A stretch of DNA of 64,000 nucleotides from an uncultured delta proteobacterium. Lineage in GTDB: Bacteria; Desulfobacterota; Binatia; Binatales; Binataceae. Positions 6,088-28,241 of this stretch are shown here, one piece after another. How positions within the stretch are numbered: position 1 is the first letter of the stretch; every line of letters begins with the position of its first letter. The notes under the pieces are model-generated. The model saw only the letters and a list, made by a program, of their open reading frames with translations, made no database searches and was not told where the DNA came from. A program made the position numbers and the translations under genes. The stretch spans positions 67,049-131,048 of the forward strand of contig CAWFGH010000012.1 of the NCBI GenBank assembly GCA_963815255.1, in the 5' to 3' direction.

Positions 6088-6428
6088 GACAGTCACCTTC
6101 CTCGCGTGAGCATGGCCTGTTCGGCCACGCAGTTTAAGCGGGCGCCTTCCGATGCGGAGCCGGAACCCGACAGAGTTCGGTGGGAGCCCGCGGATGAGCG
6201 ATTCACGCCCCGATCGTTCGTCTAACAGGGAAGGTCGTGTCAAGTCTCGCCGCGTGCGTCGCCGGGACGATGAAGGCCGCTGGCTGACAGTCTGGGATGC
6301 ACTTGGGCGGACCGCACGGATACGACCGCCCGCGGCGCATCGGCGTGCCCTTCATGTGCCGATTTTCGGTATCGCGAGCCGTCGGCTATCGTATTCGCCA
6401 ACATGTGGAGCGAGGACAAGGGGTAGAG

Positions 6429-7739: not shown

Positions 7740-8876
7740 TTAGGTAAACGGGAGCGCTTTGGCGGGCTGCGTGACTCCCTTCTGGCGCGCGCGGATCAGC
7801 AGGTCTCGCAGCTTGGCGGGGTTGATCGGCTTCTTGAACAGCGCGCCCTCCAGCCCTTTCAGCCGGCTGCGCATCAGGATGTGGTCGCGGTCGTAGTTGT
7901 ACGCGGTCATCAGGATGACCGGCAGATGCGGCATCTCTTCCTTCACGCGGGTGTAGAACTCGTAGCCGTCCATTTCGGGCATCACGACGTCGGAGATGAC
8001 CGCGTCGACGCGCACGTTTCGCAGGATGCCGAAGGCGGTGCTGGGACGGATAGCAGTGTAGACCTGGCAGCGCTCGGCGCGCAGCACGTCGGCGAGCGAG
8101 CTCACGACCGAGAGGTCGTCGTCGAGCACCAGCACCGACATACCGGCCAGCGGCCAGTCGCATCCGTTCCTCGACGCGTCGGGCACCGTTGCGCGCTCTT
8201 CAGCCTCGGCGCCACTGGGCGCGAGATCGGCCATCTTCTTGCCCGCCAGGTAGTCGCGGGTTACGTAGATGCCCTTGCGGGTCATCTCGTCGAGCCGGCG
8301 CACGATGCCCTGTACGCGCCGGATACCGGTGCGGATCGAATCGAGCCGCTCGTGCTCGACCACCAGTTCGGCGTCGGAGAGATGGGCCTCGACGCAACGC
8401 GCGAGCAGGTCGAGGTTGTTGGTGATGGCTTCCAGCGGATTGTAGATCTCGTGCGCGAGGCTGACCGCGATTTCCCCGGCCGTCGCGAGCTGCTCGCGAT
8501 GGCGCATCATGCGGATGTCGCGGGCGAAGCCGATGGAACCGGCCACCGTCCCGTCCTTCTCGTAGATGATCGAGCCCGAGATCGCGACCGGGATCAGCTC
8601 GCCCGCCTTGCAGCGGAGCACGGTCTCGAAGTTGGAGATGCGCCCCGAATCCTCGCTGGCGGCGCGCATCGCCTTCATCACGCGGCGCGCTTCCTCCAGC
8701 GAGGGGTAGATGGTGGTGATTTTCTGGCCGACGATTTCCTCGGCGGAGTAGTGCAGATTTTTGCGCGCTCCGTCGTTGTAGAAAATGATCGTGCCGTCAC
8801 GGTCGACCGCGATGATGATGTCAGGGGAGCTTTCGACCAGGCTTTGGAGATAGTTATGGTCCAATGATGACAACAT
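7740..8876 (-). CDS. PAS - HisKA - receiver (REC) protein lacking a recognisable HATPase domain
   Basis: N-terminal PAS (..SSPDIIIAVDRDGTIIFYNDGA..), an H-box (SLAHEIYNPLEAI), and a C-terminal REC (VLVLDDD.., ISDVVMPEMDG, LMTAY, FKKP). No N/G1/G2 boxes lie between HisKA and REC. Confidence 0.8.
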   Translation of the reverse strand: MLSSLDHNYLQSLVESSPDIIIAVDRDGTIIFYNDGARKNLHYSAEEIVGQKITTIYPSLEEARRVMKAMRAASEDSGRISNFETVLRCKAGELIPVAISGSIIYEKDGTVAGSIGFARDIRMMRHREQLATAGEIAVSLAHEIYNPLEAITNNLDLLARCVEAHLSDAELVVEHERLDSIRTGIRRVQGIVRRLDEMTRKGIYVTRDYLAGKKMADLAPSGAEAEERATVPDASRNGCDWPLAGMSVLVLDDDLSVVSSLADVLRAERCQVYTAIRPSTAFGILRNVRVDAVISDVVMPEMDGYEFYTRVKEEMPHLPVILMTAYNYDRDHILMRSRLKGLEGALFKKPINPAKLRDLLIRARQKGVTQPAKALPFT

Positions 8877-9302
8877 GATGGGTTACCGCGGAAGTTCAAT
8901 CCCTTTCCGCCAGGACGCGGCACGCCGGGCGGCAGGCTTTGGATTTCATTTTTTGTTCAGCGCGAGGCGATATGGTTTGTGGCACGCGGCCGAAAGTCTT
9001 CGGCGCGCGGCCTTTGTACTAAATATAACCTCGATCGGCAGTTCGAAGCGGAGTGCGCGCGGCTTGAGGTCCCCCGAGACCGAAAATCATCTTCGTCCCC
9101 TCCTCCGTCCGCACAACCACCGCAGCGTAGGTCTCGCATGCATCATACTTTGCCATCCCCAGCGCAGTGCTTCTCACATTTTCAGTTAAAAAGCACGCGA
9201 CCCACGGCGTTGTCGCCACCGCAGGCATCTGGACCCTGGATGCCGTCCCGACCTGTTGGTTAGTATATCCCTCGCTGAAGTGCAATGCATCTGCCCATAG
9301 GG

Positions 9303-9352
9303 AATAAACACTCAACAGGGGTGGATAAACCCTCAACAGGAGTTAATAAACA
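9303..9352. repeat. 20-bp-period direct repeats ATAAAC(A/C)CTCAACAGG x2 plus a third ATAAACA
   Basis: ggaATAAACACTCAACAGGggtggATAAACCCTCAACAGGagttaATAAACA read directly. Contains ggtggataa, which is TTATCCACC on the other strand. Confidence 0.8.
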
Positions 9353-9564
9353 TCCGACAAGTGCCAAAAACGGACATCGGGACAGACATAGAGAAAGCGC
9401 GCGGTCCAATCGGGTCGGAAAGGCGCCCGCTAAGCCGCTCATTCTTTATTTCCCTCCGCGCGTTTTTTGCGGTGTCGACAAAATGCGGGGAAAGAGATCC
9501 ATCGCTTCGCGGAGATCCTTCGCTGATGCTCAGGATGACGGCAGGGGCGTTTTCGCCGTCATCG

Positions 9565-9605
9565 TGAACGAAGGTTGCTGAACGAAGGTTGTCGAACTGA
9601 AGGAT
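9565..9605. repeat. 14-bp tandem repeat TGAACGAAGGTTG(C/T) x2 plus a degenerate third copy
   Basis: tgaacgaaggttgc tgaacgaaggttgt cgaactgaaggat read directly. Confidence 0.8.
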
Positions 9606-9646
9606 CGACGCGGAGCGATTTTTTGTGTCCAGGTCTTCTGCACAAA

Positions 9647-9709
9647 CCTGTGTCGATGCGAAACTTGTATCGACGCAAACTTGTATCGATCCTAACTTGT
9701 ATCCATGCC
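9647..9709. repeat. 16-17 bp tandem repeat AACTTGTATCGA x3, plus a degenerate leading copy
   Basis: cctgtgtcgatgcg aaacttgtatcgacgc aaacttgtatcgatcc taacttgtatccatgcc read directly. Confidence 0.8.
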
Positions 9710-9918
9710 ATGCCCCCGCCGTATAAACTACGGGAGGCACTGCTTCGGGGGGATAAGCACATCGTCAAGCGGCCGCGCGGCTCAAGGATGCCGGCGGAAT
9801 AAACCGCTGCGCGGGCGAGTCCTGCAACTGGTGCTGGTGCCAGCGGCTTAAGGCAGCAGTTTTTCAGTTGCCATAGCATCGCGCTTACACTTACAATTTG
9901 TGCTGGAGAGCATCTTAA

Positions 9919-11229
9919 ATGGCAGAACCTCTTAGCTTCGAAACGCTCGCGAGCCGCGAGTATGTGCTTTCCAGCGCGGAAAATTTCGTTCTGTATGTGT
10001 TGCTGGAAGCGATCGCGCAAGGCACCGGCGGCGCAGGCGGCGGCTCGCGGCTGCCATTGAACCTGGGCCTGGTAATCGACCGCTCGGGTTCGATGTACGA
10101 TGAGCGGCGGCTGGAATTCGTGATCGAGGCGGTCAAATTTCTTGCCGAGAACGTAGCGCCCGAGGACAAGGTTGCGATCGTCGCCTTCGCCGATCGCGCC
10201 AAGGTGATCGTCGGCTCCGACGAGATCCACGACAAGGGTGCCGTGCGGCGCGCGATCGAAGATATCGATCTGCTCGAGATCGGCGGCGGCACCCAGATGG
10301 CGTTGGGGATGCGTGCGGCGATCGATGAGGTCAAGAAAAATCTCGCGCCCAACCGGCTCAACCGCGTCCTGGTGCTCACCGACGGGCAGACTTACGAGGA
10401 GACCGCGTGCATCGATCTCGCCAATCAGAACCGCGATCAGATGTCGTTCTCCGCGATGGGCGTGGGCGTTGAGTTCAACGAGAAGCTGCTGATGCGGATC
10501 TCGCAGGATTCGCACGGCAAGTATCACTTCATCGGCGACCCGGCGGAAATTCCCGGCATCTTCGAAGACGAGCTGGCGGGCCTGCGCGCGGTCAGCGTGC
10601 GCAACGGACGAATCGAAGTCACACTCGCGCAAGGCGTGCAGGTGCGCGAGGCCTTTCGCGCCAGTCCCGAAATTTACTCTCTCGGCGCGCCGCTGGTCGG
10701 CGATGACCGCCATATCAGTTACGAGATCGGCGACCTCGAAGCCGGCGTGCCCGGCTCCGTGCTGCTGACCCTCGTGCTGCCGCCGCGCAAGCCCGGACCG
10801 GTGCGCATCCTGCAATCGAACCTGCGCTACGAGGTGCCGGGCGTTGGCGAACAGAGCCTGGGCCGCGACCTCACTGTCGAGTACACGCTCGACCGCACGC
10901 TCACCGGCAAGGTCAACGGGCGCGTTATGAACCTGGTTGACCAGGTCTCGATCGCCAAGATGCAGTCGCGCGCCGAAGAAGAGCTCAAGGCGGGCAATGT
11001 GGATCGCGCGACGCGTCTTTTGAGCAATGCGATCCAGGGCACCCAGCGCCTGGGCAACGTCAAGGCGACGCAGGCGCTGGTCGGCCTGATGGACCAGGTC
11101 AAGAAAACCCAGACGCTGCAGACCAAGGCGGCCAAGACCACGCTGTTGCAGGCTCAGGCCGTAGTGCGCAAAACCCAGATGCTCGATCCGGACGCTCTGA
11201 AGGATTTTTCCAAACCCGACCAGGGATAA
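9919..11229 (+). CDS. von Willebrand factor type A (vWA) domain protein
   Basis: MIDAS motif LVIDRSGSM, ..VAIVAFADRAKV.., ..GGGTQMALGM.., ..VLVLTDGQT... The C-terminal half is beta-rich and is followed by a helical Thr/Gln/Lys-rich tail. GGAGAG lies 8 nt before the ATG. Confidence 0.85.
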   Translation: MAEPLSFETLASREYVLSSAENFVLYVLLEAIAQGTGGAGGGSRLPLNLGLVIDRSGSMYDERRLEFVIEAVKFLAENVAPEDKVAIVAFADRAKVIVGSDEIHDKGAVRRAIEDIDLLEIGGGTQMALGMRAAIDEVKKNLAPNRLNRVLVLTDGQTYEETACIDLANQNRDQMSFSAMGVGVEFNEKLLMRISQDSHGKYHFIGDPAEIPGIFEDELAGLRAVSVRNGRIEVTLAQGVQVREAFRASPEIYSLGAPLVGDDRHISYEIGDLEAGVPGSVLLTLVLPPRKPGPVRILQSNLRYEVPGVGEQSLGRDLTVEYTLDRTLTGKVNGRVMNLVDQVSIAKMQSRAEEELKAGNVDRATRLLSNAIQGTQRLGNVKATQALVGLMDQVKKTQTLQTKAAKTTLLQAQAVVRKTQMLDPDALKDFSKPDQG

Positions 11230-11300
11230 CTATTAAATCTCCCCATGGAGTCGGTCTAAGATGGCGACGCCGTGAAGCCGGCCAGTGAGGTGCTGAGAAG

Positions 11301-11942
11301 ATGATCAAGTGCAGCGAGTGCGGCTACGAAAATATCGATGGGCTTGACTACTGCGACGGATGCGGCGCGAAGCTGAACGCTGCGGCCCCGGCGCAGGCGG
11401 GCGAGAGCGGCGCTGCCGCGTCCGAAGCTGCCGCGCATCCCGCTCCGGCCGAAGCCGCGGCTGAAGCGCCGGCCGAGGCTCCGGCGACACCGCCTCCATC
11501 CGAAACGCCGACCGGCGAAATCAAGCCGCCCGCCGAGGCGAACGCCGCGGCAGCGGCTGCCGCGCCGGCCGCCGAGGCGCCGGCCGCGGCGGCAGGAGCG
11601 ACGGCACGCGCCAAGCTGCAAGTCGTACGCGGCGGACGCAAGGGCCAGGAGTTCCCGCTCGAGGACGGCAACAACCTCGTCGGTCGATGGGATCCCGAGA
11701 CCGGCGCATTTCCCGAGGTCGACCTCGATCAGGACGATCCCGAGGCCAAGATCTCACGCAAGCACGCGCTGATCCGCTTCGAGGCCGGCAAGATCACGGT
11801 CGAGGATATCGGCAGTCTCAACGGCACCTACGTCAATCGCCAACCGCGCCTGATGCCTGGCAACCCGGTCGAGCTAAAGACGGGTGACGAGATAATTATC
11901 GGCAAAACATTTCTCAAGTTGATCGTCGAGCCGGTTTCCTAG
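11301..11942 (+). CDS. zinc-ribbon + FHA domain protein
   Basis: N-terminal CSECGYEN..YCDGCG (CxxC..CxxC), an Ala/Pro/Glu-rich linker, and a C-terminal FHA (..NLVGRWD..EVDLDQDDPEAKISRKHALIRF..ITVEDIGSLNGTYVN..). Confidence 0.85.
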   Translation: MIKCSECGYENIDGLDYCDGCGAKLNAAAPAQAGESGAAASEAAAHPAPAEAAAEAPAEAPATPPPSETPTGEIKPPAEANAAAAAAAPAAEAPAAAAGATARAKLQVVRGGRKGQEFPLEDGNNLVGRWDPETGAFPEVDLDQDDPEAKISRKHALIRFEAGKITVEDIGSLNGTYVNRQPRLMPGNPVELKTGDEIIIGKTFLKLIVEPVS

Positions 11943-12045
11943 GGCTGGGGCGCGTGAGATGCCGCACCGAGGCCCGGTTGGGGAGCCGGGCCTTTGCTGT
12001 CTCGGCGCCAGCTTCGCCAGCATGGATAGATAAGTTTAAGTCATT

Positions 12046-14004
12046 ATGAAACCGGGCGAACAGCTTCCCGCCGGTCAGATGCTCGATGGCCGTTACCGCG
12101 TGCACAAGGTGCTCGGCCAGGGCGGGATGGGACGGGTCTATCTCGCCAACGACACGCGGTTAGCTAACCGGCCCGTCGCCGCCAAGGAAATGATCATCGG
12201 CGACGGGATCGCGGAGAAGAAGGCGATCGAGGACTTCGCGCGCGAGGCCCGCGTGCTCGCCGCGCTCGCGCATCCGGGCATCCCCAACGTCATCGACTAC
12301 TTCGCCGAGAACAACCGCCACTACCTCGTGATGGAGTTCGTGGCGGGCGGCGATTTGCAGGGCATGCTCGACAAGCTGGGGCCCAAAGGCAAGTTGCCCG
12401 AGACGCGGGTGCTGCGATGGGCGCGCCAGATGCTCGACGTGCTCAGTTTTCTGCACAGCCAGACGCCGCCGATCATCTATCGCGACCTCAAGCCCGGCAA
12501 CATCATGATCGACAAGGATGGCCGTGCGATGCTGATCGATTTTGGCATCGCACGATTCCTGCCGCCGGGCGGCCGCGGCACGCAAATCGGCTCGGTCGGC
12601 TACGCGCCGCCCGAGCAGTACATGGGCAAGGTCGAGCCGCGCTCGGACCTCTATTCGCTGGCCGCCACGATGCATCATCTGCTGAGCGGCCGCGACCCGC
12701 AGCTCGAGCCGCCATTCAGCTTTCCGCCGCTGCGCGATCTGAGCCCCGAAGTTTCGATAAAGACCGCCGAGGTCGTGATGCGCGCGCTCGACAAGGACGT
12801 TGAAAAACGCCCGGCCTCGGCGCGCGACATGATGCATGCGCTGCCCGACCCCGGTCCCGAGCCCAAGGCCTCGGGCGTGCTGGGTTCCAGCGCCGGCAAT
12901 GCCGCGCCGATCGCCTCGATGCGGACCGTGGTGCTCGACCGTCCACAATCAGTGGGCTCGCCGGGTTTGAGCGTTCAGCCGCCCCCCGCAAGCGGCAGGC
13001 GTCTTGGCGCGACGCCATCCGTGGGCAGCGGGGGCGCGTCCGCGAATCCGTCGCTCACGAATATGCCGACGGTGGTTTTGAGCCGCCCTGGAGCTTCCGG
13101 ATTTGCGGCACCTGCCGAATCTGCCGGCAGTTCCGGAGCTACCGGCAAGTCCGGAAAGTCCCGAAGTGCTGGGCTTGCCGGATCCGCCGGACCTATCTCC
13201 GCCGCGCCTCCCGCTCCGTCACGATTGGCAGCGCCGCCGACACTCACGTCGAGCACGGCGGCGGGCGTCGCCAAGGTGAAGTCGCTGGCGCGGTCGGCGC
13301 GGGCGATGGCGCAGCGGGCGGCGGCGAAAATAGAAGCACAACAATCGCTGTTCACGAGACCGGCTGAAGTCCCTTCTGTCTCCTCCACCGCGAAGACGCA
13401 GGACTTGACTGGCAAGGCCAAGGCGGTGGCGCAGGCGGCGCCAGTCGCCGCACCCTCGAAGAGCGAATCGATCTCGAAAAACGTGCGCGCTCAAAATGTT
13501 CCCTCGGGTACAAATGCGGGGTCATCAAAGGCCGCGGCGTCGGCGGGCAAGCCGTCGGTCGCATCTTCGAGCATGTCTTCTTCGAACATTGGTTCTTCGA
13601 GCATGCCTTCCGGGGCGAGGCCCGCGATCGGTAAGAAGGGCGCGCAAAACGGTGCCGCGCCGATGACCTCGAATGCGCAAACCGAAGCGGGCGCATGGTT
13701 AATCGCGAGCGGCAGCGCGCCGCGTTTCGGGTTGATACAGAGCCGCACGATTGTCGGACGCGCGCTCGGCGGCGAGGAGCCCGATATCGATCTCGGCCAG
13801 CTCAAGGGCATCGCCGATCGCGTGTCGCGCCGCCATGCCGAGATCATCAAGCACGGCACGGAGTATTTCATCCGCGATCTTGGGAGCCTCAACGGCACCT
13901 ACATCACCGGCCGCGGGCGGCTCGGACGCGATCAACTCTACAAGCTCAAGGATCGCGACCAAGTGGTGTTCGGCAGTGCTAAACTGGAGTTTCGAAAGGG
14001 CTAA
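12046..14004 (+). CDS. Hanks-type Ser/Thr protein kinase with C-terminal FHA domain
   Basis: Kinase motifs GQGGMGRVY, VAAKEM, IIYRDLKPGNIMI, DFGIAR and GYAPPEQ. A Ser/Ala-rich linker of about 300 aa follows. C-terminal FHA (..TIVGRA..VSRRHAEIIKHGTEYFIRDLGSLNGTYI..). Confidence 0.9.
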   Translation: MKPGEQLPAGQMLDGRYRVHKVLGQGGMGRVYLANDTRLANRPVAAKEMIIGDGIAEKKAIEDFAREARVLAALAHPGIPNVIDYFAENNRHYLVMEFVAGGDLQGMLDKLGPKGKLPETRVLRWARQMLDVLSFLHSQTPPIIYRDLKPGNIMIDKDGRAMLIDFGIARFLPPGGRGTQIGSVGYAPPEQYMGKVEPRSDLYSLAATMHHLLSGRDPQLEPPFSFPPLRDLSPEVSIKTAEVVMRALDKDVEKRPASARDMMHALPDPGPEPKASGVLGSSAGNAAPIASMRTVVLDRPQSVGSPGLSVQPPPASGRRLGATPSVGSGGASANPSLTNMPTVVLSRPGASGFAAPAESAGSSGATGKSGKSRSAGLAGSAGPISAAPPAPSRLAAPPTLTSSTAAGVAKVKSLARSARAMAQRAAAKIEAQQSLFTRPAEVPSVSSTAKTQDLTGKAKAVAQAAPVAAPSKSESISKNVRAQNVPSGTNAGSSKAAASAGKPSVASSSMSSSNIGSSSMPSGARPAIGKKGAQNGAAPMTSNAQTEAGAWLIASGSAPRFGLIQSRTIVGRALGGEEPDIDLGQLKGIADRVSRRHAEIIKHGTEYFIRDLGSLNGTYITGRGRLGRDQLYKLKDRDQVVFGSAKLEFRKG

Positions 14005-14021
14005 ACGCCCAAGGGCCAAGT

Positions 14022-16220
14022 GTGATGATAACGTGCCCCGAGTGCGGTCAGGCGGCTGCCGACGACGCCAGATTTTGTGACCGCTGCGGCCAGGGACTGG
14101 CGAAGTCAGCCGCGCCCAGGGTCGAATACGCGATCGCGGCGCTGGAGCCGGGTGCTTTAGTGCGTGGCGAATTCCGGATCGTCGAGGTGATCGGCCGCTC
14201 GACGATGGAAAATCGCTATCGGGCCGAGCGGACGCGCAATGGCGCCGGTCCCGAGCGCGTGCAGTTGCGTGAGCGGCCACGCCCGACGCCCGCCGAGAGC
14301 GCGCACGCTGAGAGCGCGCACGAGGAAGCGCCGGCCGGCTCGTCGGGCAACCAAGCGTCGCCGCACGAAGATCCGTCCGGGCCTCATGCCAAGACCGCCG
14401 AACTGAAACGTCCCGCCGCGCCATCGCCCGCCGATACAACCACTGCCGCGAGCGCTACTGCGGCCGGCGTCGAGAGCGCATCGGAGGTGGCCGCGCGTGC
14501 AGGCTCCAACGGCGCCAGCGTCGCGCCCCAGCCAGCCGCTGCCGCGCCTGATGCGCAAGAGACTGCAGCAGCCGTCAACGAGGGTGGGCATAACGAGGTC
14601 GCGCAGGCGCCGGCCGCAGGCGCGCGGGCCTCGGGCGCGACCGAGCCGCTGACCTTGGATGAAACGATGGCGCGTAGCGAATCCGCGCCGGCGACGCATC
14701 ATGAGTCATCGGCCGCGTCGCCGCCCGCTCCCGAAGCCGCGGCGAGCGAGAGCGCCGCTAAAGAGAGCCAGGTGCGCGACGACTCGCGCGAAAATTTAAG
14801 CGAAAATTCACGCGAAAATGTGCAAGACCTGGGCGATCTGTTCGGGCGCGTACTCGCGCTTTCGCTCACCGTCAACCATCCGGCCTTCCAGCGCGCGACC
14901 GAGGGCTTCGCCGACGACGGGCGCGTGTACCTGGTCTATCCCGACGAGCCGCTCGTCCTGCTTTCGCAGCGCCGCGGCGGACTCAAGATGAGCGAGGGCG
15001 AGGCGGTCGGAATCGCAATCCAGGTTTGCCAGGCGGTGTCGTTCCTGAATCGGCGCGGCCTGCGCCTCAACGACATCTGCCCGCAATCGATCGCGTATGG
15101 TCCCGGCGGACGAGTGAAGCTCCTGGGACTCGACTACGTCAGCAACGACAACGAGCTTCAGAGCGATCCAATTCCCAACGACGGTTACACCGCGCCCGAG
15201 GTTTATCGCGGCAAACGCGTCGACAAACGCGCGGACGTGTTCTCGATTGGTGCGCTGCTGTACAGTTGTCTTACGGGCGAACGGCTCGAATCCGAGAGCT
15301 GGCGCGAAGAGGCGGGTCCCGTGCGTTTCTATCCGCCGCACGTGGTCTCGCCCGAACTGGAGCAGGTGGTGCGCCGCGCGCTGCTGTTCGATCCGCAGGG
15401 GCGATGGCCGACCGTGGATGCGCTCAAGGCGGAGCTGGTCAGGCTGAATGCGACGATACGGATTCGCGCCGCCGCGATGACCGACGTCGGGATGGTCCGC
15501 GAGCATAACGAAGACGCGGCGATGGCGGTCGAGTTTGTGCGCCAGAGCCTGGTCGATCCGTCCGAGAACTATCTCTACGTGGTCGCCGACGGGATGGGCG
15601 GTGCGGAAGCGGGCGAGGTCGCCAGCGCAATTGCTGTCGGCGCGATTCGTAACTATGTTGATAGCGGGCTCGGCAGCGCGGAAGCCCAAAATCCGAGTCA
15701 ACTGTTAACGGCGGCGCTCGAGGAGGCCAACCGCAAGATCATCGAGTACCAGGCGGCGCATCCCGAGTCCCGCGGCATGGGCTCGACCGCCGTGGCGGTG
15801 CTTATCGTGCCGCCGGAAGGAGCTGTGGCATGGGTTGGCGACAGCAGAGTCTACTTGTCCGACGCTTCGGGCCTCCGCCAATTGACCCGCGATCATTCTC
15901 TAGTGCAGCGGCTTATTGAAATCGGCCAGATCACGCCCGAAGAGGCGCGCCATCACGAACACAAAAACGTGATCACGCGCTCCCTCGGCGCGCGCCAGAG
16001 CGGACCGGCTGGCGCCGAGGGGATGCCGCTTCGGCTCAAGCGCGGCGACCGCGTGATGCTCTGCAGCGACGGGCTGACCGCTCATGTAGAGGACAAGACT
16101 ATCGGCGAAGTCCTGCGCCGCCATGACGATCCGTATGCGGCGGCGCGCGAACTGGTGGTGGCTGCGAATGCGGGGGGTGGAACAGATAACGTCACGGTTA
16201 TTGTTGTGTTTGCTGACTGA
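14022..16220 (+). CDS. zinc-ribbon / degenerate kinase-like (pseudokinase) / PP2C phosphatase fusion protein
   Basis: N-terminal CPECG..FCDRCG. The kinase-like fold lacks the G-loop (IGRSTMENRY), has Arg where the VAIK Lys is expected (VQLRER), has LRLNDICPQS in place of HRDLKPxN, and GLD in place of DFG, but keeps GYTAPEV. C-terminal PP2C (REHNEDA, VADGMGGAEAGE, VGDSRVY, CSDGL, GGTDNVTVIVV). The start could be GTG 14022 or ATG 14025. Confidence 0.85.
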   Translation: MMITCPECGQAAADDARFCDRCGQGLAKSAAPRVEYAIAALEPGALVRGEFRIVEVIGRSTMENRYRAERTRNGAGPERVQLRERPRPTPAESAHAESAHEEAPAGSSGNQASPHEDPSGPHAKTAELKRPAAPSPADTTTAASATAAGVESASEVAARAGSNGASVAPQPAAAAPDAQETAAAVNEGGHNEVAQAPAAGARASGATEPLTLDETMARSESAPATHHESSAASPPAPEAAASESAAKESQVRDDSRENLSENSRENVQDLGDLFGRVLALSLTVNHPAFQRATEGFADDGRVYLVYPDEPLVLLSQRRGGLKMSEGEAVGIAIQVCQAVSFLNRRGLRLNDICPQSIAYGPGGRVKLLGLDYVSNDNELQSDPIPNDGYTAPEVYRGKRVDKRADVFSIGALLYSCLTGERLESESWREEAGPVRFYPPHVVSPELEQVVRRALLFDPQGRWPTVDALKAELVRLNATIRIRAAAMTDVGMVREHNEDAAMAVEFVRQSLVDPSENYLYVVADGMGGAEAGEVASAIAVGAIRNYVDSGLGSAEAQNPSQLLTAALEEANRKIIEYQAAHPESRGMGSTAVAVLIVPPEGAVAWVGDSRVYLSDASGLRQLTRDHSLVQRLIEIGQITPEEARHHEHKNVITRSLGARQSGPAGAEGMPLRLKRGDRVMLCSDGLTAHVEDKTIGEVLRRHDDPYAAARELVVAANAGGGTDNVTVIVVFAD

Positions 16221-18580
16221 TGGCGAATACGGGCACATCCGGCGCTCTGTCTAACGAGCCGCTCGCCTCCGGCACGGTTCTGCAAAATCGCTACGAGATC
16301 GAGCGCCTGCTCGGCGGCGGCGGGATGGGGATGGTCTACCTGGCGCATGACCATCGCCTGGCCAACCGCCCCTGCGCGGTCAAGGAGATGGTCGACCACT
16401 TCATCGACCAGCAGCAGCGGATCGAAGCCAACGATTACTTCGCCCGCGAAGCCGACACGCTCGCGCAGCTCAAGCACGCCGCCATCCCCGCGATCACCGA
16501 CCGCTTCGACGATCAAAACCGCCACTACCTGGTGATGGAGTACGTCGAGGGCCGCAACCTCGAAGAAGAGATTGCGGCACGCGGCGGCCCACTGCCCGAA
16601 GGCCTGATAATCGACATCGCGCGCCAGCTTTGCGACGTGCTCGCCTACCTGCACGGTTCCACGCCGCCCGTGGTCTACCGTGACATGAAGCCGTCGAACG
16701 TGATGCTGACGCCCAAGGGACGGGTGGTGCTGGTCGACTTCGGCATCGCGCGCCTGTTCAAAAGCGCGCGCAAGGGCACGATGATCGGCACGCTCGGCTT
16801 CGCGCCGCCCGAGCAATACCAGGGCGTGGTCGATCCGCGGAGCGACATCTATTCGCTCGGTGCGACGCTGCACTACGTCCTCACCGGACGCGACCCCGAG
16901 AAATTTCCGCCCTTCAGCTTTCCCCCGATACGCGACCTGCGCCCTGAGGTCTCGACCAACCTCGCGGGCGCAATCGATCACGCGCTCGCCTACCAGGCCG
17001 ACGCGCGACCCGCGAGCATCCAGGATTTCCGCGACATGCTGCTCTACGGCAAGGGCCTGGGCGAAAGCCGCGGAGCGCCGGGGGTCAGCTCGCACGGCGG
17101 CACCGCCGGCCTCGCGCTGCCGCCCGACGTCGCCGAGGCGATCGCGCCGCCGCGTCGCCGCCGTCGCCGCAAGCATCGCGCGGTGGCCTTGTTGGCATTT
17201 TTCGGGATCGTGGCCGGCGGCGCATTCGGCGCCACCTACGTCTATAACAACCCGCAATTGCAGCAGCGCCTCGGCGTCAAATCGTTCGTCGACAGCCTGC
17301 CCTGGAAGGTCCAGGAGCGCCTGAACTCCGCCGAGACTCATCCGCTGGATTTCCAGCGCATGACGCTCCAACTCTCAACTCGCTCGGGCACGCCGCTCAG
17401 TTCGCCGCGCGCGAGCTTCACCAATATCGAGTTGGCCAACAACCAGTATTTGCAGTGGAACGCCTCGTTCGCGAACCGCCTGGCCGGGCTCAAGGGACAG
17501 GACGAGAAGATTGAGGCGCGCTTCTTTTCACCCTCGGGCCTGCAAATCGCCTCCAGCACCGCGAGCCGGTTTGTGGGACCGGGAGAGAGCACGGCCGATT
17601 TCAGCGGAGTTGCACTGATGCCCGATCTCGGCGCATTGCCGGCGGGCAATTACAAGGTCGGTATCTACGTCAACGACCAGCCGATCTCCGACCAGGCGTT
17701 CGCCGTCAGCCAGGATGTCACCGCGCTGAGGGCGGCCGAGGCCGCCAACGAAGCCGAGAGGGCGCGCGAGACGGCGGACAAGGCCAAGGCGCATGACGAG
17801 GCCGAGCGCCTCGCGATGCTCGAGGCGCGCCGGCGCAAGCCCCTTCAATTAGCCGGAATCGAATTCGTCAACAGCACGAAGTCCGGCACGCCTCTGGCGG
17901 GGCCGGCGACGACCTTCAACGCGACCAAGGTGCTGTTCGTCAACTGGCGCATAACCTTCGAGAATCGGCTTTACAATCTCGATACCGGCCAATACCGGGT
18001 TGACGCCGCGTATCTCGCGCCCGACGGGCACACCTTAGGCAGCGTCGACGACATCCGCATCGTGCCGCCGTCGTCGCGGAGCGCGACCTTCAGCGGGAGG
18101 GTCGGTAACTCGGCCGGCGGCGCATTTCTGCCCGGGCAGTACACGGTCGATTTTTATCTCAACGGGCAAAAAATAGCGCAGAAGAATTTTCGCGTGCTGG
18201 CGGATACGTCGCAGCCCTATCCGGCCTCGCTCGGTAGCGCGTCGGGCGCGGCCAGCGGCGGCAGCACCGGAGCGATCGACGTTCCGACGCTCGCCACCGG
18301 ACGTATCGACGGGCTGGCGGGGGCGACCAACATCCCGGTGGAGTTGCGGTTGCGCCCGCAGCCCAACGGCTTCCTGCACGGAGAGATGGTGATTCATGAG
18401 GCCGGCTACGGCGCCACGCCGATCCAGGGCTTTATTCGCGGCAACCACGTCGTCTTCCAGGTGCCATACGGCGCCAAGACGTTGAACTTTGACGGCCGGC
18501 GCACTTCCGATCAGCTTAACGGCACTTTCTTTTCAACGCCTACCGGCGAGAGCGGTACCTGGAACACCGTCACTAATTGA
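16220..18580 (+). CDS. transmembrane Hanks-type Ser/Thr protein kinase with repeat-containing extracytoplasmic domain
   Basis: GGGGMGMVY, CAVKEM, VVYRDMKPSNVM, DFGIAR, GFAPPEQ. An RRRRRRK stop-transfer segment is followed by a TM helix (AVALLAFFGIVAGGAFGATYVY). The roughly 420-aa C-terminal region has an internal duplication. The start overlaps the upstream stop (TGATG). Confidence 0.9.
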   Translation: MANTGTSGALSNEPLASGTVLQNRYEIERLLGGGGMGMVYLAHDHRLANRPCAVKEMVDHFIDQQQRIEANDYFAREADTLAQLKHAAIPAITDRFDDQNRHYLVMEYVEGRNLEEEIAARGGPLPEGLIIDIARQLCDVLAYLHGSTPPVVYRDMKPSNVMLTPKGRVVLVDFGIARLFKSARKGTMIGTLGFAPPEQYQGVVDPRSDIYSLGATLHYVLTGRDPEKFPPFSFPPIRDLRPEVSTNLAGAIDHALAYQADARPASIQDFRDMLLYGKGLGESRGAPGVSSHGGTAGLALPPDVAEAIAPPRRRRRRKHRAVALLAFFGIVAGGAFGATYVYNNPQLQQRLGVKSFVDSLPWKVQERLNSAETHPLDFQRMTLQLSTRSGTPLSSPRASFTNIELANNQYLQWNASFANRLAGLKGQDEKIEARFFSPSGLQIASSTASRFVGPGESTADFSGVALMPDLGALPAGNYKVGIYVNDQPISDQAFAVSQDVTALRAAEAANEAERARETADKAKAHDEAERLAMLEARRRKPLQLAGIEFVNSTKSGTPLAGPATTFNATKVLFVNWRITFENRLYNLDTGQYRVDAAYLAPDGHTLGSVDDIRIVPPSSRSATFSGRVGNSAGGAFLPGQYTVDFYLNGQKIAQKNFRVLADTSQPYPASLGSASGAASGGSTGAIDVPTLATGRIDGLAGATNIPVELRLRPQPNGFLHGEMVIHEAGYGATPIQGFIRGNHVVFQVPYGAKTLNFDGRRTSDQLNGTFFSTPTGESGTWNTVTN

Positions 18581-18620
18581 GCCTTGCCGGCAGAGCGGAA
18601 CCGCGGTCGCCGCGTATCGG

Positions 18621-18703
18621 TTATTCACACAACTGATCCAATACACTTGCGGCTAGTTCCTGTACGCTTGCAGTTATCCAATACTTTCGCGGTTATCCAA
18701 TAC
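18621..18703. promoter_or_regulatory. cluster of three ATCCAATAC motifs (two as GTTATCCAATAC, 19 bp apart) plus a TTATTCACA box
   Basis: ATCCAATAC at 18636-18644, 18676-18684 and 18695-18703, in the roughly 200-bp gap before the FHA membrane gene. The same 9-mer recurs at 47065-47073. Confidence 0.5.
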
Positions 18704-18788
18704 GCTCAGCATCTATATTCAGCATCAATCCACGCGGCGCGCTTGAACGCATCAGCGCCACGCGCAATGCTTTGTGACCGGACCCGCT

Positions 18789-19661
18789 ATGGCGAGTAAC
18801 GTCTCTCAGGAAAAGCTGCTCTTTTACGCCGCCGCGGGCGGCTTGGGCGGGTTCGCGGCCTGGGGCGTGCAGGAGTCGGTGGCCGGTATCCGCAACTATC
18901 TTGTGCGCGACGCGGCGACGGGCCTGGTCATCGGCCTGTTCATCTGCGCCTTTCTCGCTTCGATCGAGGCGCTTAGCGTGGGCCAATGGCGCCAGGCTCT
19001 GCGCGGGATCAAGAGCGGCGCGATCTTCGGCGCAATCGGCGGCGCCGCGGGCCTGATCGGCGGAGAGATCCTGTTCGACATTCTGCACGGCTTTGTCGGG
19101 CGCGTAGTCGGATGGGCCCTGCTGGGAGTGGCGGTAGGGTTGGGCGTCGGATGGGCGTCGGGATCGGCCGCGCGCAAGCGCAACGGCGCGCTCGGCGGGC
19201 TTATCGGCGGCGCGCTGGGCGGCCTCTGCTATCAGACCCTGACCACCACTTTTCCGCAATTCTTCGGACGCGCGATCGCGATCATCGTGCTCGGCATGCT
19301 GATCGGATTTTTCATCGGACTGGTCGGCGAGTTGCTTAAGCGCGGCTGGCTGATGGTGATCCGCAGCCAGAGCCGCAACGCGCGCGAGGGACGCGAATAT
19401 CCGCTGACCAAGCCGGTCACGATCATCGGACGCGCCGAGGAGAGCGATATCGGCCTCTTTGGCGATCAGGCCGTGCTGGCCCATCACGCGATCATCCGGC
19501 GCGAGGGGCGCGACTTCGTCGTCAGCCCGGCCGGCGGCGGGCAGGTGTTGATCAACCGCCGCCCGGTGACGGGCCGCCAGGCGTTACGCAGCGGCGACCG
19601 CGTCGAAGTAGGAGGGACACTCTTTATTTTTCGCGAACGCGCACAAGCCGCGCAGAGTTGA
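18789..19661 (+). CDS. multi-pass glycine-zipper membrane protein with C-terminal FHA domain
   Basis: Five to six Gly-rich hydrophobic segments (GGLGGFAAWGV, GAIFGAIGGAAGLIGG, VGWALLGVAVGLGVGWASG, GGLIGGALGGL, IIVLGMLIGFFIGLVG), then an FHA (..VTIIGRAEESDIGLFGDQAVLAHHAIIRREGRDFVV..). The ORF opens at GTG 18774; ATG 18789 was chosen. Confidence 0.8.
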   Translation: MASNVSQEKLLFYAAAGGLGGFAAWGVQESVAGIRNYLVRDAATGLVIGLFICAFLASIEALSVGQWRQALRGIKSGAIFGAIGGAAGLIGGEILFDILHGFVGRVVGWALLGVAVGLGVGWASGSAARKRNGALGGLIGGALGGLCYQTLTTTFPQFFGRAIAIIVLGMLIGFFIGLVGELLKRGWLMVIRSQSRNAREGREYPLTKPVTIIGRAEESDIGLFGDQAVLAHHAIIRREGRDFVVSPAGGGQVLINRRPVTGRQALRSGDRVEVGGTLFIFRERAQAAQS

Positions 19662-19671
19662 GCGGGCCGAG

Positions 19672-20469
19672 TTGAGGAGCGTCGTGAAGCTGCGCGCCGC
19701 TGGTTCGAAACTGCTCGCCGCCGCGCTGGCGGCGATGGCGGCGGCGCTCGTGGCCGCGTGCGCGACCACCGTTCAGCAGGAAATCGCCGCGGAACCGCCG
19801 ACCGCGATCGAGACGCTCTCCTACTTCCCGTTCCAGGTTAAGGGCTATCAGAACAGCTATCCGCGGCGCCGAATCCTGGTGCTGATGCCGGTCGACACGC
19901 GCGATTTCAAGGACGCCGGCGGCCAGAGCCATGCGCCCGCCGACGGCAATCCCGCAACCGGCGTGATGCTGGGGCCCGACGGCGCAGTGGTGCAGCGCGT
20001 GTATAGCTCGCCGCTCGGGCCAATCGTGCAGGGCGCGATCGTGCGCGCGGCCGACGAGGCCGGGATGCTGGCGACGGCCTCCAACGATACGTTGGAAGCC
20101 GCGCTCAAGGAGACCAACGAGGATTACGTCCTGGCGAGCAGGGTCACCCGATGCTGGGTGAACAAGCATACCGGTACGGATGTCAACGCGCCGCCCAGCG
20201 CGGGCCCGGGCTGGTTCACTACCGCCGACGTCGCCCTCGACGTGACCATCTACAAGTCTCCGTTCAACGTAGCCTTCTGGCAGGGCGAGAGCGGCGCAAC
20301 CTACAACGATCCTCCCGCCGACAATGGCAGCGGGATGGGCGACGACGTTCCGATCTATGATCGGCCGAGCGAGGTTCTGTCGGTGGCGCTGACGCGGGCG
20401 GTGGCCGGAATTTTCAAGCGCGAAGCGCTGCACGAACTGGTCGTGCAGGACACGTCTCGTATTCACTGA
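19672..20469 (+). CDS. lipoprotein of unknown function
   Basis: Signal peptide with lipobox (LAAMAAALVAAC). No family recognised by eye. Begins about 10 nt after the upstream stop. The start is uncertain: TTG 19672, or GTG 19684 just after GAGGAG. Confidence 0.65.
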   Translation: MRSVVKLRAAGSKLLAAALAAMAAALVAACATTVQQEIAAEPPTAIETLSYFPFQVKGYQNSYPRRRILVLMPVDTRDFKDAGGQSHAPADGNPATGVMLGPDGAVVQRVYSSPLGPIVQGAIVRAADEAGMLATASNDTLEAALKETNEDYVLASRVTRCWVNKHTGTDVNAPPSAGPGWFTTADVALDVTIYKSPFNVAFWQGESGATYNDPPADNGSGMGDDVPIYDRPSEVLSVALTRAVAGIFKREALHELVVQDTSRIH

Positions 20470-20666: not shown

Positions 20667-21644
20667 CTACTTCTTGCCTCCGGCGCGGCGGCGCTCGCCG
20701 CCGCCCGCGCGCCCCGCGCGGGCGTGCGCCTTGGCGCCGCCGGTGCCGGTCGCCTTGGCCGCCTCGGCTTCGCCGGCGGCCTCGGCGCTGGCTTCAGCGC
20801 CGGACTCGGCCTCGCGGTCAGTCTTGCGGTCAGTGCCACGCTCCTGGGCGCTCGCCGCGCTGGCTGCGCCACGCTTTTCGAGCGAGGCCTTGAGCGCCGC
20901 CATCAGATCGATCACCTGGCCGCGGCGCGGCTCTTCGTGGGCCTCGGTCACTTGCTGGCCGGCGATCTTCTGCTGCGCCGCCTCTTCGACCTTCTCGCGG
21001 AAAGTGTCGTGGTACTTCGAGAGATCGATTTTCTTGCTGGTCAGCTCGCCTATCAGCCGTTCGGCCAGGGTCAGTTCGCTCTCCTTGGCGGCCTCGTTGG
21101 TCGCGCGGTCGATCTCTTCGATCGGACGCACCTCGTCGGCGTAGTAGATCGTGTGCATCATCAAGCCTTTCTCATAGGGCCGCAGCACCACGACGTGCTC
21201 TTTGCCGCGGAGCGTGAAACGTCCGAGGGCGACGCGTTCGGTCTTGGTCATCGCGTCGGTGAGCAGCCGATAGGCCTTCGCGGAGGCCTGCTCACATCCA
21301 AGGTAGTACGAGGTCTCGAAATAAATCGGATCGATCTGTTCCAGCGGGACGAACTCGGTGATCTCGATCGAATGGTCGCCGCCGTGCGTTTCGAGAGCTT
21401 TCAACTCTTCGTCGGTGAAAGTGACGTAACGGCCCTTGGCGACCTCGTAGCCGCGCACCAGTTCGCTGCGGTCGATAATCGCGTCGTCGACCGGACAGTA
21501 GATTTTCTGCTGGATACGGCTTAAGTCCTTGGCGTGCAGCAGGTTGAAGCTAACCGCTTTCGAGCGTGTCGCCGGGAACAGGCGCACAGGAATCGAAACC
21601 AGGCCAAAGGAGATGTTGCCGTTGCCGACGGGACGTGATGCCAT
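20667..21644 (-). CDS. ku: Ku protein (NHEJ DNA end-binding)
   Basis: MASRPVGNGNISFGLVSIPVRLFPATRSKAVSFNLLH..YEVAKGRYVTFTDEELKALE is a canonical bacterial Ku, with a Lys/Arg/Ala-rich C-terminal tail. The start was moved to ATG 21644, which follows GGGAGG. Confidence 0.92.
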   Translation of the reverse strand: MASRPVGNGNISFGLVSIPVRLFPATRSKAVSFNLLHAKDLSRIQQKIYCPVDDAIIDRSELVRGYEVAKGRYVTFTDEELKALETHGGDHSIEITEFVPLEQIDPIYFETSYYLGCEQASAKAYRLLTDAMTKTERVALGRFTLRGKEHVVVLRPYEKGLMMHTIYYADEVRPIEEIDRATNEAAKESELTLAERLIGELTSKKIDLSKYHDTFREKVEEAAQQKIAGQQVTEAHEEPRRGQVIDLMAALKASLEKRGAASAASAQERGTDRKTDREAESGAEASAEAAGEAEAAKATGTGGAKAHARAGRAGGGERRRAGGKK

Positions 21645-21744
21645 CTGAAGAACCTCCCGATAATCCCAGCTTAGCGGTAGGGTCGCGGCGGAGGCCATAG
21701 CGATCCGGACAAAAAAACCGCCTGGCGAAGACGGGGCGAAAACA

Positions 21745-28049: not shown

Positions 28050-28241
28050 GTCCCCGTATCCTATTCGTTCGGGACGCGAGGGCGAACTGCCGCGGGGCGA
28101 TTGCAGCGCCGGCCTAGCCGCGCGCAGACGTCGGCAATCGCCTGTTGACGGCGTGCGAGCCGCTGGTGCGTGGCCTGCGACCTGAGGCGGGCCCGCCGAG
28201 GGCCCGCCTCGAAGTCGCCAGGAAAGTGTGTTTTGCGGACG

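Follow-up and report, generated by a model that had tools for sequence, protein, structure and literature searches.

A probable bacterial ArnA/ArnB-type threonine-phosphorylation switch with a putative link to the cell envelope in Binataceae

Introduction

The archaeal ArnA/ArnB system is among the closest known counterparts of the locus reported here, a seven-gene module at positions 9919-20469 of a 64,000-nucleotide (nt) stretch of DNA from an uncultured delta proteobacterium of the family Binataceae (GenBank assembly GCA_963815255.1, contig CAWFGH010000012.1, positions 67,049 to 131,048 of the forward strand; hereafter the window). In the ArnAB complex the zinc finger of ArnA binds ArnB at its β-sandwich and C-terminal domain, Thr residues in the last two ArnB helices are phosphorylated one by one by the Hanks kinase ArnC, and the forkhead-associated (FHA) domain of ArnA then binds the phosphothreonine (pThr), so that a loose complex becomes a tight one, with PP2A acting in opposition (PMC6509490, PMC12852372). 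Archaellum and pili genes are repressed by this complex through a poorly understood route, and SisArnA/ArnB repress genes of the DNA-damage response (PMC10470591). ArnB-like folds and architectures also occur in bacteria, and ArnB's own C-terminal domain is catalogued as ArnB_C, InterPro IPR040929 (PMC12852372).

Similar components have been described together in two bacterial settings. The Deinococcus radiodurans genes DRA0331-DRA0334 encode a von Willebrand factor A (vWA) protein, a kinase, a FraH-like FHA protein and a PP2C phosphatase, of which the FHA protein and the PP2C are set against each other in push-pull antagonism, and the genes are linked to radiation-responsive kinases (bioRxiv 10.64898/2026.01.23.701218); the same preprint cites the ArnA paper for its 'modular design', without mention of ArnB. 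In TerY-P triads a vWA protein occurs with a Ser/Thr kinase and a PP2C, and zinc ribbons are part of the set (Anantharaman et al. 2012, summarised in PMC10542128). Already known, therefore, are ArnAB, the four-gene operon of Deinococcus, the TerY-P triads and the presence of ArnB-like folds in bacteria.

An initial annotation of the Binataceae locus, made from its sequence, had described a cluster of vWA, FHA, kinase and phosphatase genes with no identifiable output. We argue here that the locus is probably a bacterial ArnA/ArnB-type threonine-phosphorylation switch which the Binataceae appear to have wired to the cell envelope.

Organisation of the locus

The seven open reading frames (ORFs) of the module, here called g1 to g7, all lie on the plus strand between 9919 and 20469, with gaps of 71, 103, 17, -1, 193 and 10 nt:

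g1, 9919-11229, plus strand: 436 residues; ArnB-like vWA protein, cytoplasmic (Pfam VWA, E = 7.8e-18)
g2, 11301-11942, plus strand: 213 residues; ArnA/FraH-like zinc ribbon and FHA domain (Pfam, 2.6e-15)
g3, 12046-14004, plus strand: 652 residues; Pfam Pkinase (4.5e-39) and FHA (7.5e-14)
g4, 14022-16220, plus strand: 732 residues; zinc ribbon, weak Pkinase match (1.1e-10) and PP2C
g5, 16220-18580, plus strand: 786 residues; Pfam Pkinase (1e-37), transmembrane helix and large C-terminal region
g6, 18774-19661, plus strand: 295 residues; membrane protein with FHA/YscD-like domain (Pfam)
g7, 19672-20469, plus strand: 265 residues; lipoprotein, no family assigned

The arrangement of seven co-directional genes is as first annotated, the gap before the sixth gene being 193 nt where 'about 200' had been given. 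Profile searches with Pfam and NCBIfam also upheld the domain calls for g1-g7; g4 is a genuine pseudokinase, and the lipobox Cys30 of g7 is invariant.

The vWA protein

Structure prediction places g1 close to ArnB. In an AlphaFold2 (AF2) model built on 28 homologues, with a predicted local distance difference test (pLDDT) score of 86.7, strands from residues 5-33 and 225-323 form a β-sandwich that the vWA domain (residues 47-223) splits, and the C-terminus comprises a four-helix bundle (residues 334-417) followed by a disordered tail. The three-part fold of ArnB, with its vWA domain, split β-sandwich and C-terminal helical bundle, is therefore present in the model. A Foldseek search of the Protein Data Bank (PDB) returned 4FX5, a bacterial structure of ArnB type, as the best match (E = 3e-29, template-modelling (TM) scores 0.76/0.78, 440 aligned columns), together with chains A/B of 8S05, the Sulfolobus ArnAB complex (E = 1e-25, TM 0.63-0.72), and 5A8J, the ArnB paralogue vWA2/ArnE (E = 4e-22); these top alignments span ∼430 columns, the full length of g1.

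The best PDB sequence match of a g1-family profile is ArnB itself (8s05_A, E = 3.4e-26), the vWA part giving 79 bits. The MIDAS (metal ion-dependent adhesion site) residues, D54, S56, S58, T125 and D155, are invariant in 28 g1 homologues, and the protein has neither a signal peptide nor a transmembrane helix. The Pfam vWA-TerF-like model (PF10138) scores 24.1 bits on g1, under its cut-off of 29.4. Judged by predicted fold and profile, we assign g1 with high confidence as an ArnB-type protein; it had first been taken for a vWA protein-interaction module, and a generic interaction accessory does not describe it.

The zinc ribbon-FHA protein and the other FHA domains

The gene adjoining g1, 71 nt downstream, encodes the probable counterpart of ArnA. 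A zinc ribbon, C-x2-C-x10-C-x2-C, at residues 3-25 of g2 is joined by an Ala/Pro-rich linker to an FHA domain at residues 108-207, and ArnA (8s05_C, 5a8i_A) matches residues 3-186, zinc finger and FHA domain together, with E ∼1e-8. Searched by itself, the 23-residue zinc ribbon also finds the ArnA zinc finger as its best PDB match (KCSECGYENIDGLDYCDGCGAK compared with KCNLCGYENDDDALFCIKCGAQ). On these sequence comparisons g2 can be identified, again with high confidence, as the ArnA-type partner of g1. Because the archaeal ArnA/ArnB pair is itself a phospho-regulated switch, the regulated object is, by analogy, most likely the g1-g2 complex. The locus indeed contains no enzyme that could serve as output, as first annotated, but it would not then lack a regulated object.

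The GR, SxxH and SxNG motifs of the g2 FHA domain are invariant in 53 homologues, and the FHA domains of g2 and g3 alike keep all five pThr-binding residues in every homologue. In g6, in contrast, the Ser of SxxH is replaced by L, Q, M or F and the S-x-N-G loop is gone, in 74/74 homologues. For this domain (residues 205-288) the Pfam model Yop-YscD_cpl (3.9e-11), of the phospho-independent YscD type, outscores FHA (1.4e-7). Since g6 has neither the phosphate-binding Ser nor the S-x-N-G loop, the module has two canonical pThr readers, g2 and g3, and not the three initially counted. That writers, an eraser and pThr readers share one locus is borne out: two Hanks kinases that appear active from their sequences, an intact PP2C and FHA readers are all present.

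This grouping had initially been likened to the threonine-phosphorylation pathway of the type VI secretion system (T6SS), with PpkA, PppA and Fha1. Such a pathway, controlling a secretion machine encoded elsewhere, would account for finding a kinase, a PP2C, FHA domains and a vWA domain together, and g2, g3 and g6 do give weak matches to the TagH family (TIGR03354). Their scores of 34.8, 27.6 and 15.8, however, compare with a cut-off of 120.25, and the vWA domain belongs to a separate cytoplasmic protein of ArnB type, not to the periplasmic part of a kinase. No T6SS gene is found in the 64-kb window, where, as the initial annotation had stated, the scanned ORFs include no T6SS, cell-division or secretion genes; Pfam searches also found no T6SS family in the flanks of six contexts from other phyla (described below), the Binataceae flanks not having been screened for T6SS. 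We regard the T6SS explanation as close to refuted, and the analogy does not hold.

The kinases and the pseudokinase-phosphatase fusion

The third gene encodes a soluble Hanks kinase (residues 17-270; YRD, DFG), followed by a disordered linker of ∼290 residues and a canonical FHA domain at residues 568-643. The product of g5 is a single-pass receptor kinase, in which the kinase domain (residues 25-275; YRD) is followed by a poly-Arg stretch and a transmembrane helix at residues ∼322-342. The Gly loop, catalytic Lys, YRD and DFG are all intact in both sequences. With 52% identity between their kinase domains over 265 residues, g3 and g5 are a dedicated paralogous pair; this much of the initial description stands, although 'near-identical', as it had called the N-lobes, does not describe these domains. 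Nor is YRD unusual, as had been supposed. The Tyr is present in 37/37 g3 homologues and 59/59 g5 homologues, and in the kinases of related cassettes from other phyla a PP(I/L)(I/V) motif is mostly followed here by either Y or F, so that [Y/F]RD is a family signature and no oddity.

The ectodomain of g5, 440 residues long, is built from two related β-rich repeats with a charged helix between them, plus a C-terminal domain. It has no significant Pfam or PDB sequence match, giving only a spurious PapC_N fragment and a weak match to DUF6941. The latter (E = 0.002) falls on the second β-rich repeat of the ectodomain (17246-18577); a stand-alone DUF6941 gene (L086, 3732-4154) lies a few genes 5' of the cassette in a metagenome-assembled genome (MAG) labelled 'Firmicutes', which may be coincidence.

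The fourth protein comprises a zinc ribbon (residues 2-26), a pseudokinase (residues ∼47-475) with a Binataceae-specific disordered insert of ∼190 residues, and a PP2C domain (residues 486-731). Alignment with active kinases shows GLD in place of DFG, LND in place of HRD and a degenerate Gly loop. The DFG Asp is lost in all aligned g4-type fusions, from Armatimonadota, Eremiobacterota and the MAG labelled Firmicutes, and because these homologous fusions in other phyla have lost it too, the pseudokinase state must be ancient. The PP2C domain, whose metal-binding motifs are intact, exceeds the NCBIfam cut-off for Stp1 (Stp1/IreP; 237.9 against 230) and appears active. The zinc ribbon was considered as a specifically ArnA-like element and rejected as such, ArnA being one of many weak zinc-ribbon matches (E = 0.6-0.9).

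Candidate phosphorylation sites

In ArnB the phosphorylated threonines lie in the last two helices, and the corresponding region of g1 is rich in candidate acceptors:

10918-11175, plus strand: Thr-rich C-terminal helical domain of g1, residues 334-419; candidate multi-site phospho-acceptor

Its motifs are T365 TRLL, T375 TQRL, T384 TQAL, T397 TQTL, T407 TTLL and T419 TQML. Across 120 Binataceae sequences, Thr makes up 9.8% of the last 110 residues of g1 compared with 4.0% of the body, and T-Q-x-hydrophobic occurs on average 3.9 times per tail against 0 in the body. Both T419 and K406 are invariant in 28/28 aligned sequences from several phyla, and the tail of sequences from outside the Binataceae closes with GTKKLEYGTRKLTQLL, which is nearly invariant. 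A related basic motif, such as SRKRLAYQDYSRR or SRKRIQYENYQDK, stands at the C-terminus of more distant vWA proteins without FHA, PP2C or kinase neighbours (metagenome loci L112-L168); the threonines of GTKKLEYGTRKLT are replaced in it. The tail motif may thus be ancestral and its Thr version specific to the phospho-regulated subfamily.

The linkers of g2-g5 are poorly conserved (24-46% column identity), and the conserved islands within them are all centred on T-x-x-L/I:

g2: island PTGEI, T71
g3: islands TVVL, T294, and SSTAKTQDL, T451
g4: island EDPxGPxAKTAEL, T125, the sole conserved island in the insert
g5: juxtamembrane island GT(A/G)(G/D)L, T295

An AKT-x-[DE]-L island is common to the g3 linker and the g4 insert. 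FHA domains commonly prefer pT-x-x-(L/I/V), and the pattern of islands is what a network of kinases and FHA domains would be expected to leave in sequence, without amounting to proof of one.

The core cassette in other bacteria

A homologue search started from g1 returned only Binataceae sequences, with >82% identity; relatives outside the family were reached through a search of 50%-identity representatives and a profile of the distant members. The representative search gave 219 clusters at E <1e-30, most of them ∼420 residues long and aligned end to end. Six contexts from other phyla, whose flanks are otherwise unrelated, were compared, and in 6/6 the vWA gene has beside it one or more kinases, an FHA domain and a gene for a PP2C:

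Armatimonadota, Eremiobacterota and 'Firmicutes' MAG: kinase / zinc-ribbon-pseudokinase-PP2C / vWA / zinc-ribbon-FHA
Anaerolineae: kinase-FHA / PP2C / vWA / unknown / kinase / zinc-ribbon-kinase
Two other MAGs: PP2C / vWA / zinc-ribbon-FHA / FHA-vWA-FHA / kinase

The zinc-ribbon-FHA gene lies directly 3' of the vWA gene in 5/6 of these contexts; in Anaerolineae the FHA domain is fused to a kinase. The extra FHA-vWA-FHA protein, of 750 residues, sits between the zinc-ribbon-FHA and kinase genes (L084, 5147-7402; L085, 9918-12161). Related sets are also carried on plasmids. That of Deinococcus sp. QL22 has vWA, kinase, FHA and PP2C genes in this order, as in the biochemically studied DRA0331-0334 operon of D. 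radiodurans, its vWA protein being 27.8% identical to g1 over 86% of the length (E = 1e-27), and a Trichormus plasmid has vWA, FHA and PP2C genes without an annotated kinase.

The association is specific to close relatives of g1. Among 80 metagenome loci, grouped by similarity to g1 and counted only when at least 4 kb of flank was available, an FHA neighbour was found for 10/10 of the close g1 subfamily compared with 2/32 distant vWA proteins (Fisher p = 4.5e-8), a PP2C neighbour for 10/10 compared with 0/32 (p = 6.8e-10), and a kinase neighbour for 8/10 compared with 2/32 (p = 1.5e-5). On these sequence comparisons, many phyla possess the cassette of which g1-g4 represent a lineage-specific form. 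None of the cassettes from other phyla includes g5, g6 or g7, which are therefore Binataceae additions.

A different reading of the core is that it belongs to the TerY-P-type triads, acting as a stress or anti-phage defence switch like those of ter loci, CoCoNuT systems and stand-alone TerY-P. The domain vocabulary is the same, a vWA protein, a PP2C, a kinase and zinc ribbons (definition in PMC10542128). The vWA-TerF-like model that falls below threshold on g1 is listed for many of its homologues, the kinases match PADLOC kinase models, and relatives of the cassette occur on Deinococcus and cyanobacterial plasmids; Gao et al. in 2020 reportedly described an anti-phage TerY-P system. The PADLOC matches of the kinases are, however, to generic Hanks-kinase models, and g1, g2, g6, g7 and the PP2C domain match no PADLOC model. 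Zinc ribbons are carried by the FHA protein and by the phosphatase instead of the kinase C-terminus, and no ter, restriction or effector genes are present in the window. Synteny across the family, the 82% median identity of g1 and a GC content equal to that of the flanks are the opposite of what a mobile, fast-evolving defence island would show. We therefore consider a TerY-P-type function improbable.

Conservation within the Binataceae

Co-occurrence of the seven genes was examined in 80 genomic loci around g7 homologues, kept from 120 genome matches, on to which all seven proteins were mapped; loci with at least 9.5 kb upstream of g7 were taken as informative (n = 59). The strict order g1-g7 is found in 52/59 of these, even at g7 identities down to 46%. 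Five more are consistent with it, having insertions that push g1/g2 beyond the fetched stretch, frameshifts or FHA cross-labelling. The arrangement is far beyond chance, and the random juxtaposition that a neighbourhood comparison might have revealed is excluded.

The genes are nevertheless not equally bound to each other. Median identities to the window proteins are 82% for g1, 65% for g2, 55% for g3, 58% for g4, 64% for g5, 74% for g6 and 50% for g7; g1, with the highest value, is by far the most constrained component, and g6 is second. The spacer between g5 and g6 is ∼200 nt in most loci, and in 15/69 loci 0.6-3.5 kb of unrelated genes stand there instead. In 2/59 informative loci (L029, L031) g6-g7 occur without g1-g5 nearby, and three shorter loci (L023, L027, L030) also have g6-g7 without g1-g5 in the 4.4-7.5 kb of upstream sequence available. 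There is thus a seam between g5 and g6, and g6-g7 are a separable pair; the seven genes are not one indivisible unit. The initial picture of a single seven-gene module is right as to the conserved order in the Binataceae, which is made up of a g1-g4 core, a g5 addition and the g6-g7 pair.

The genes inserted between g5 and g6 were considered as the missing output and rejected, being unrelated genes (a ZIP transporter, GrpB, a fatty-acid desaturase, DUF4153). An alternative upstream partner common to the solo g6-g7 loci was likewise rejected, as the upstream genes differ between loci. One MAG, JOPF038, carries two g6-g7 contigs (L029, L053). In L031 a gene 5' of the solo pair (5979-7523, minus strand) encodes collagen triple-helix repeats and a Peptidase_S74 domain (endosialidase chaperone), a combination typical of phage tail fibres.

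The g6-g7 pair and the envelope components

Read from its sequence, g6 is an inner-membrane protein with about six Gly-rich transmembrane helices (residues ∼15-186), a region that has no Pfam match. The lipobox Cys30 of g7 is invariant, and the protein has no Pfam, NCBIfam or PADLOC match; its relatives are found almost only in MAGs labelled Candidatus Binataceae (phylum Binatota) or 'uncultured delta proteobacterium'. A g6 homologue lies directly 5' of g7 in 80/80 loci, and the pair is never separated. Foldseek comparison of the AF2 model of g7 (pLDDT 80) retrieves DUF330/XCC0632, HpaA, FlgT, CsgG, PelC and LptE, with E from 5e-7 to 1e-4 and TM scores to target of 0.5-0.6. The predicted fold resembles those of periplasmic or outer-membrane-anchored scaffold lipoproteins of the LptE/PelC/DUF330-like class.

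The spacer 5' of g6 contains one conserved element:

18743-18771, plus strand: non-coding block CTTGAAC-N17-AATGCT; candidate internal promoter/operator for g6-g7

In 7 close relatives the columns of this block (∼60 nt with its surroundings) are invariant or nearly so. Since the rest of the spacer is not conserved, this suggests that g6-g7 have a promoter of their own. The spacer also holds three exact copies of ATCCAATAC within 70 nt (18636-18703), and a fourth copy lies at 47065-47073, making four in the window compared with 0.12 expected. These repeats were considered as a conserved operator and rejected, being absent 5' of g6 in 80/80 related loci, even at 93-95% protein identity; they are therefore strain-specific.

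The envelope components could be taken as the centre of the system. The module would then be a regulator of envelope or cell-wall homeostasis built around g5-g7, with substrates among envelope biogenesis proteins encoded elsewhere and with g1/g2 as accessory adaptors, on the model of the actinobacterial FhaA/FhaB-PstP-PknA/PknB cluster or of outer-membrane-lipoprotein stress sensors. Consistent with this are the 440-residue ectodomain of g5, the polytopic g6, the envelope-lipoprotein fold predicted for g7 (LptE, PelC, CsgG, DUF330/PqiC-like, FlgT), the rank of g6 in conservation and its constant company with g7, and the matches, below threshold, of g2 to the FhaB/FipA and OdhI models. On the other hand, no FtsW/RodA, penicillin-binding protein (PBP) or PASTA domain is present in the module, the most conserved gene is g1, and the FHA domain of g6 has no pThr-binding residues. 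Moreover, because the g1-g4 cassette exists in many phyla without g5-g7, the envelope parts are an add-on and not the conserved centre. We regard an envelope-centred regulator as unlikely, though envelope homeostasis could be the physiological context of an ArnA/ArnB-type switch.

Surroundings of the module

Upstream, the module is bordered by a PAS-HisKA-REC gene (7740-8876, minus strand) that is divergent from g1. Its product has PAS, a weak HisKA match and a receiver domain, with no HATPase_c match, and the same gene is found 5' of g1 in L042 and L044, which are distant loci. The ∼1 kb before g1 (8877-9918) holds short ORFs only, none with a family match, and one possible promoter:

9868-9897, plus strand: sigma-70-like promoter candidate, TTGCCA-18-TACAAT, 22 nt 5' of the g1 start codon

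This is the sole consensus match between 8800 and 21000, a region in which shuffled sequence gives a mean of 2.0, so that it is weak evidence; scans of the module region for promoters and terminators gave nothing above background. The GC content of the module is uniform with that of its flanks. The remaining window contains housekeeping genes (glycolysis, SelB, DnaE, transporters) and one tRNA-Gln, far from the module, which was the only match in an Rfam scan. A stretch of ∼1.6 kb (28050-29687) has no ORF of at least 150 residues on either strand and no Rfam match.

Downstream, a Ku gene (20667-21866, minus strand) is convergent to g7 and is followed by LigD (21745-24480), a phosphoesterase-ligase-primase; the Ku/LigD pair is divergent. 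Ku-LigD lie directly 3' of g7 here, as they do in every close relative, and at a distance of 7-10 kb in L042 and L044, which raises the question of whether the module is a DNA-damage signalling unit linked to them. The SisArnA/ArnB repression of DNA-damage-response genes (PMC10470591) and the link of Deinococcus DRA0331-0334 to radiation-responsive kinases (10.64898/2026.01.23.701218) speak for such a function. Ku-LigD are, however, absent within 10 kb downstream in most of the more distant Binataceae loci, 0/6 of the cassettes from other phyla adjoin repair genes, and Ku, being convergent, is not co-transcribed with the module. A functional link to Ku-LigD seems very improbable.

Proposed mechanism

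The working model that we propose for an ArnA/ArnB-type switch begins with a loose complex, in which the zinc ribbon of g2 would hold g1, by homology with the solved ArnAB complex. The kinases g3 (soluble) and g5 (receptor) would phosphorylate several threonines of g1, in its C-terminal helices and its tail, as well as the conserved T-x-x-L/I islands found within disordered linkers of g2, g3, g4 and g5. Once these sites carry pThr, the canonical FHA domains, one in g2 and one in g3, would bind them and turn the loose complex into a tight one. The PP2C would be brought to the complex by g4, through its own zinc ribbon and its pseudokinase as a docking domain, and would reset the switch. The input would most likely be an envelope or extracellular cue sensed by the g5 ectodomain, possibly with the perhaps separately transcribed g6-g7. 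The output would lie in how g1 and g2 are assembled; their complex would act on a partner whose gene is elsewhere and which, by analogy with ArnAB, probably affects gene expression. Our confidence is high for the homology, moderate for the phospho-logic, and low for the roles of g5-g7 and for docking through the g4 zinc ribbon.

Several points weigh against this model. The g1 profile matches the C-terminal region of ArnB only weakly, at 14.7 bits, and residues 226-436 of g1 match no Pfam family at E up to 10; equivalence of this region to ArnB_C is supported by the predicted structure and by the weak profile alignment. Most of the T-Q-x-L motifs of g1 lie inside helices in the AF2 model; FHA domains bind extended peptides, and binding to g1 would therefore need a phosphorylation-driven order-to-disorder transition of the kind proposed for ArnB. 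Alternatively, the threonines of the tail could be structural. Because ArnA is not a specific match of the g4 ribbon, docking of this ribbon on g1 is speculative, and adjacency is the single argument for a role of g6-g7, a pair that also occurs without g1-g5 nearby. Only the ArnA/ArnB pair is demonstrably homologous between the two systems, since the Sulfolobus phosphatase is PP2A and the kinase architectures differ, and the mechanistic steps for the Binataceae proteins are all drawn by analogy. The output of ArnAB is itself disputed (PMC10470591 compared with PMC12852372).

A wider proposal, which we offer tentatively, is that the ArnA/ArnB switch is one branch of an ancient, prokaryote-wide cassette. 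In such a cassette enzymes encoded in cis might write, read and erase marks on an ArnB/Sec23-24-like vWA hub, and in its bacterial form a small zinc ribbon might be a common docking handle that brings the reader, the eraser and, in some lineages, the writer to one and the same hub surface; the Binataceae might then have plugged the switch into a trans-envelope sensor made up of the receptor kinase, the phospho-independent FHA membrane protein and the outer-membrane-type lipoprotein. If this is true, the output of ArnAB-type switches, long sought, might be found with the help of genetically tractable carriers, among them Deinococcus and cyanobacteria.

Bacteria commonly have signalling clusters of this general type. 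In the literature searched, however, we found no description of a bacterial subfamily of ArnB-like proteins, defined and sharing a conserved Thr-rich tail, with specific linkage across phyla to an ArnA-like zinc-ribbon-FHA protein, to [Y/F]RD kinases and to a PP2C that is often fused to a pseudokinase, nor of the seven-gene Binataceae elaboration with its receptor kinase, atypical FHA membrane protein and family-restricted lipoprotein. The stated view of ArnB in bacteria (PMC12852372) would be corrected accordingly, to a bacterial ArnB-like subfamily that is tightly and specifically linked to an ArnA-like protein, Hanks kinases and a PP2C across phyla. We consider the result to be solid, testable comparative genomics that reframes the locus: what appeared to be an output-less signalling module becomes recognisable as a probable switch, its vWA protein being the likely regulated object. 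It also provides leads, in the candidate phospho-acceptors of g1 and the linkers, in the conserved family of pseudokinase-PP2C fusions, and in culturable Deinococcus and cyanobacteria. The Binataceae are an abundant uncultured soil lineage, and the module is among their most conserved signalling systems.

Comparison with known systems

The ArnA/ArnB system of Sulfolobus acidocaldarius and Saccharolobus islandicus, with its kinases ArnC/ArnD and its phosphatase PP2A, resembles the Binataceae locus in the predicted fold of g1, its MIDAS and its Thr-rich helical bundle, in the architecture and sequence of g2, in the adjacency of g1 and g2 as of arnA and arnB, and in having Hanks kinases and a Ser/Thr phosphatase in the system. 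In neither is an enzyme or DNA-binding domain recognisable as output. The Binataceae system differs in being bacterial, with no archaellum to regulate and with its kinases and phosphatase in the same operon. Of its kinases, g3 has an FHA domain of its own and g5 is a receptor kinase, and the system has a lipoprotein and a membrane protein with an atypical FHA domain attached to it; the identity of g1 to ArnB is low outside the vWA domain.

Deinococcus DRA0331-0334 has the same four components in one operon, with a homologous vWA protein, as judged from the QL22 plasmid copy. Its PP2C, however, is fused to KI-FHA, whereas that of g4 has a zinc ribbon and pseudokinase as fusion partners, and it has one membrane kinase and no g6-g7; the role of the vWA protein was not assayed in the preprint (10.64898/2026.01.23.701218). 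TerY-P systems share the cluster of vWA, PP2C and Ser/Thr kinase, the zinc ribbons and a predicted phosphorylation-dependent switch. In these the C-terminus of the kinase bears a zinc ribbon or an OB fold, whereas the C-terminal part of g3 is an FHA domain and that of g5 an ectodomain. In the module, ribbons are found instead on g2 and g4, FHA readers are integral, and the locus is a syntenic one on the chromosome; g1 stays below the TerF-like Pfam cut-off, and no PADLOC model recognises it.

The T6SS pathway of PpkA, PppA and Fha1 shares the logic of kinase, PP2C and FHA domain with a vWA domain somewhere in the system, but its vWA domain is the periplasmic part of PpkA, whereas g1 is a separate cytoplasmic protein, and its FHA protein is of the TagH family (TIGR03354), which g2, g3 and g6 do not match. 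The actinobacterial FhaA/FhaB-PstP-RodA-PbpA-PknA/PknB cluster differs in its RodA/FtsW, PBP and PASTA components, none of which is found in the module. The NCBIfam scores are 195-196 against a cut-off of 450 for PknB_PASTA and 53 against 125 for FhaB_Rv0019c, and the equivalogs TagH, FhaB/FipA, OdhI, GltG and PknB-PASTA all fall far under their cut-offs. The best structural match of the g1 model, 4FX5, is Caci_2163 of Catenulispora acidiphila, a vWA protein from structural genomics, which also matches the family profile over its full length.

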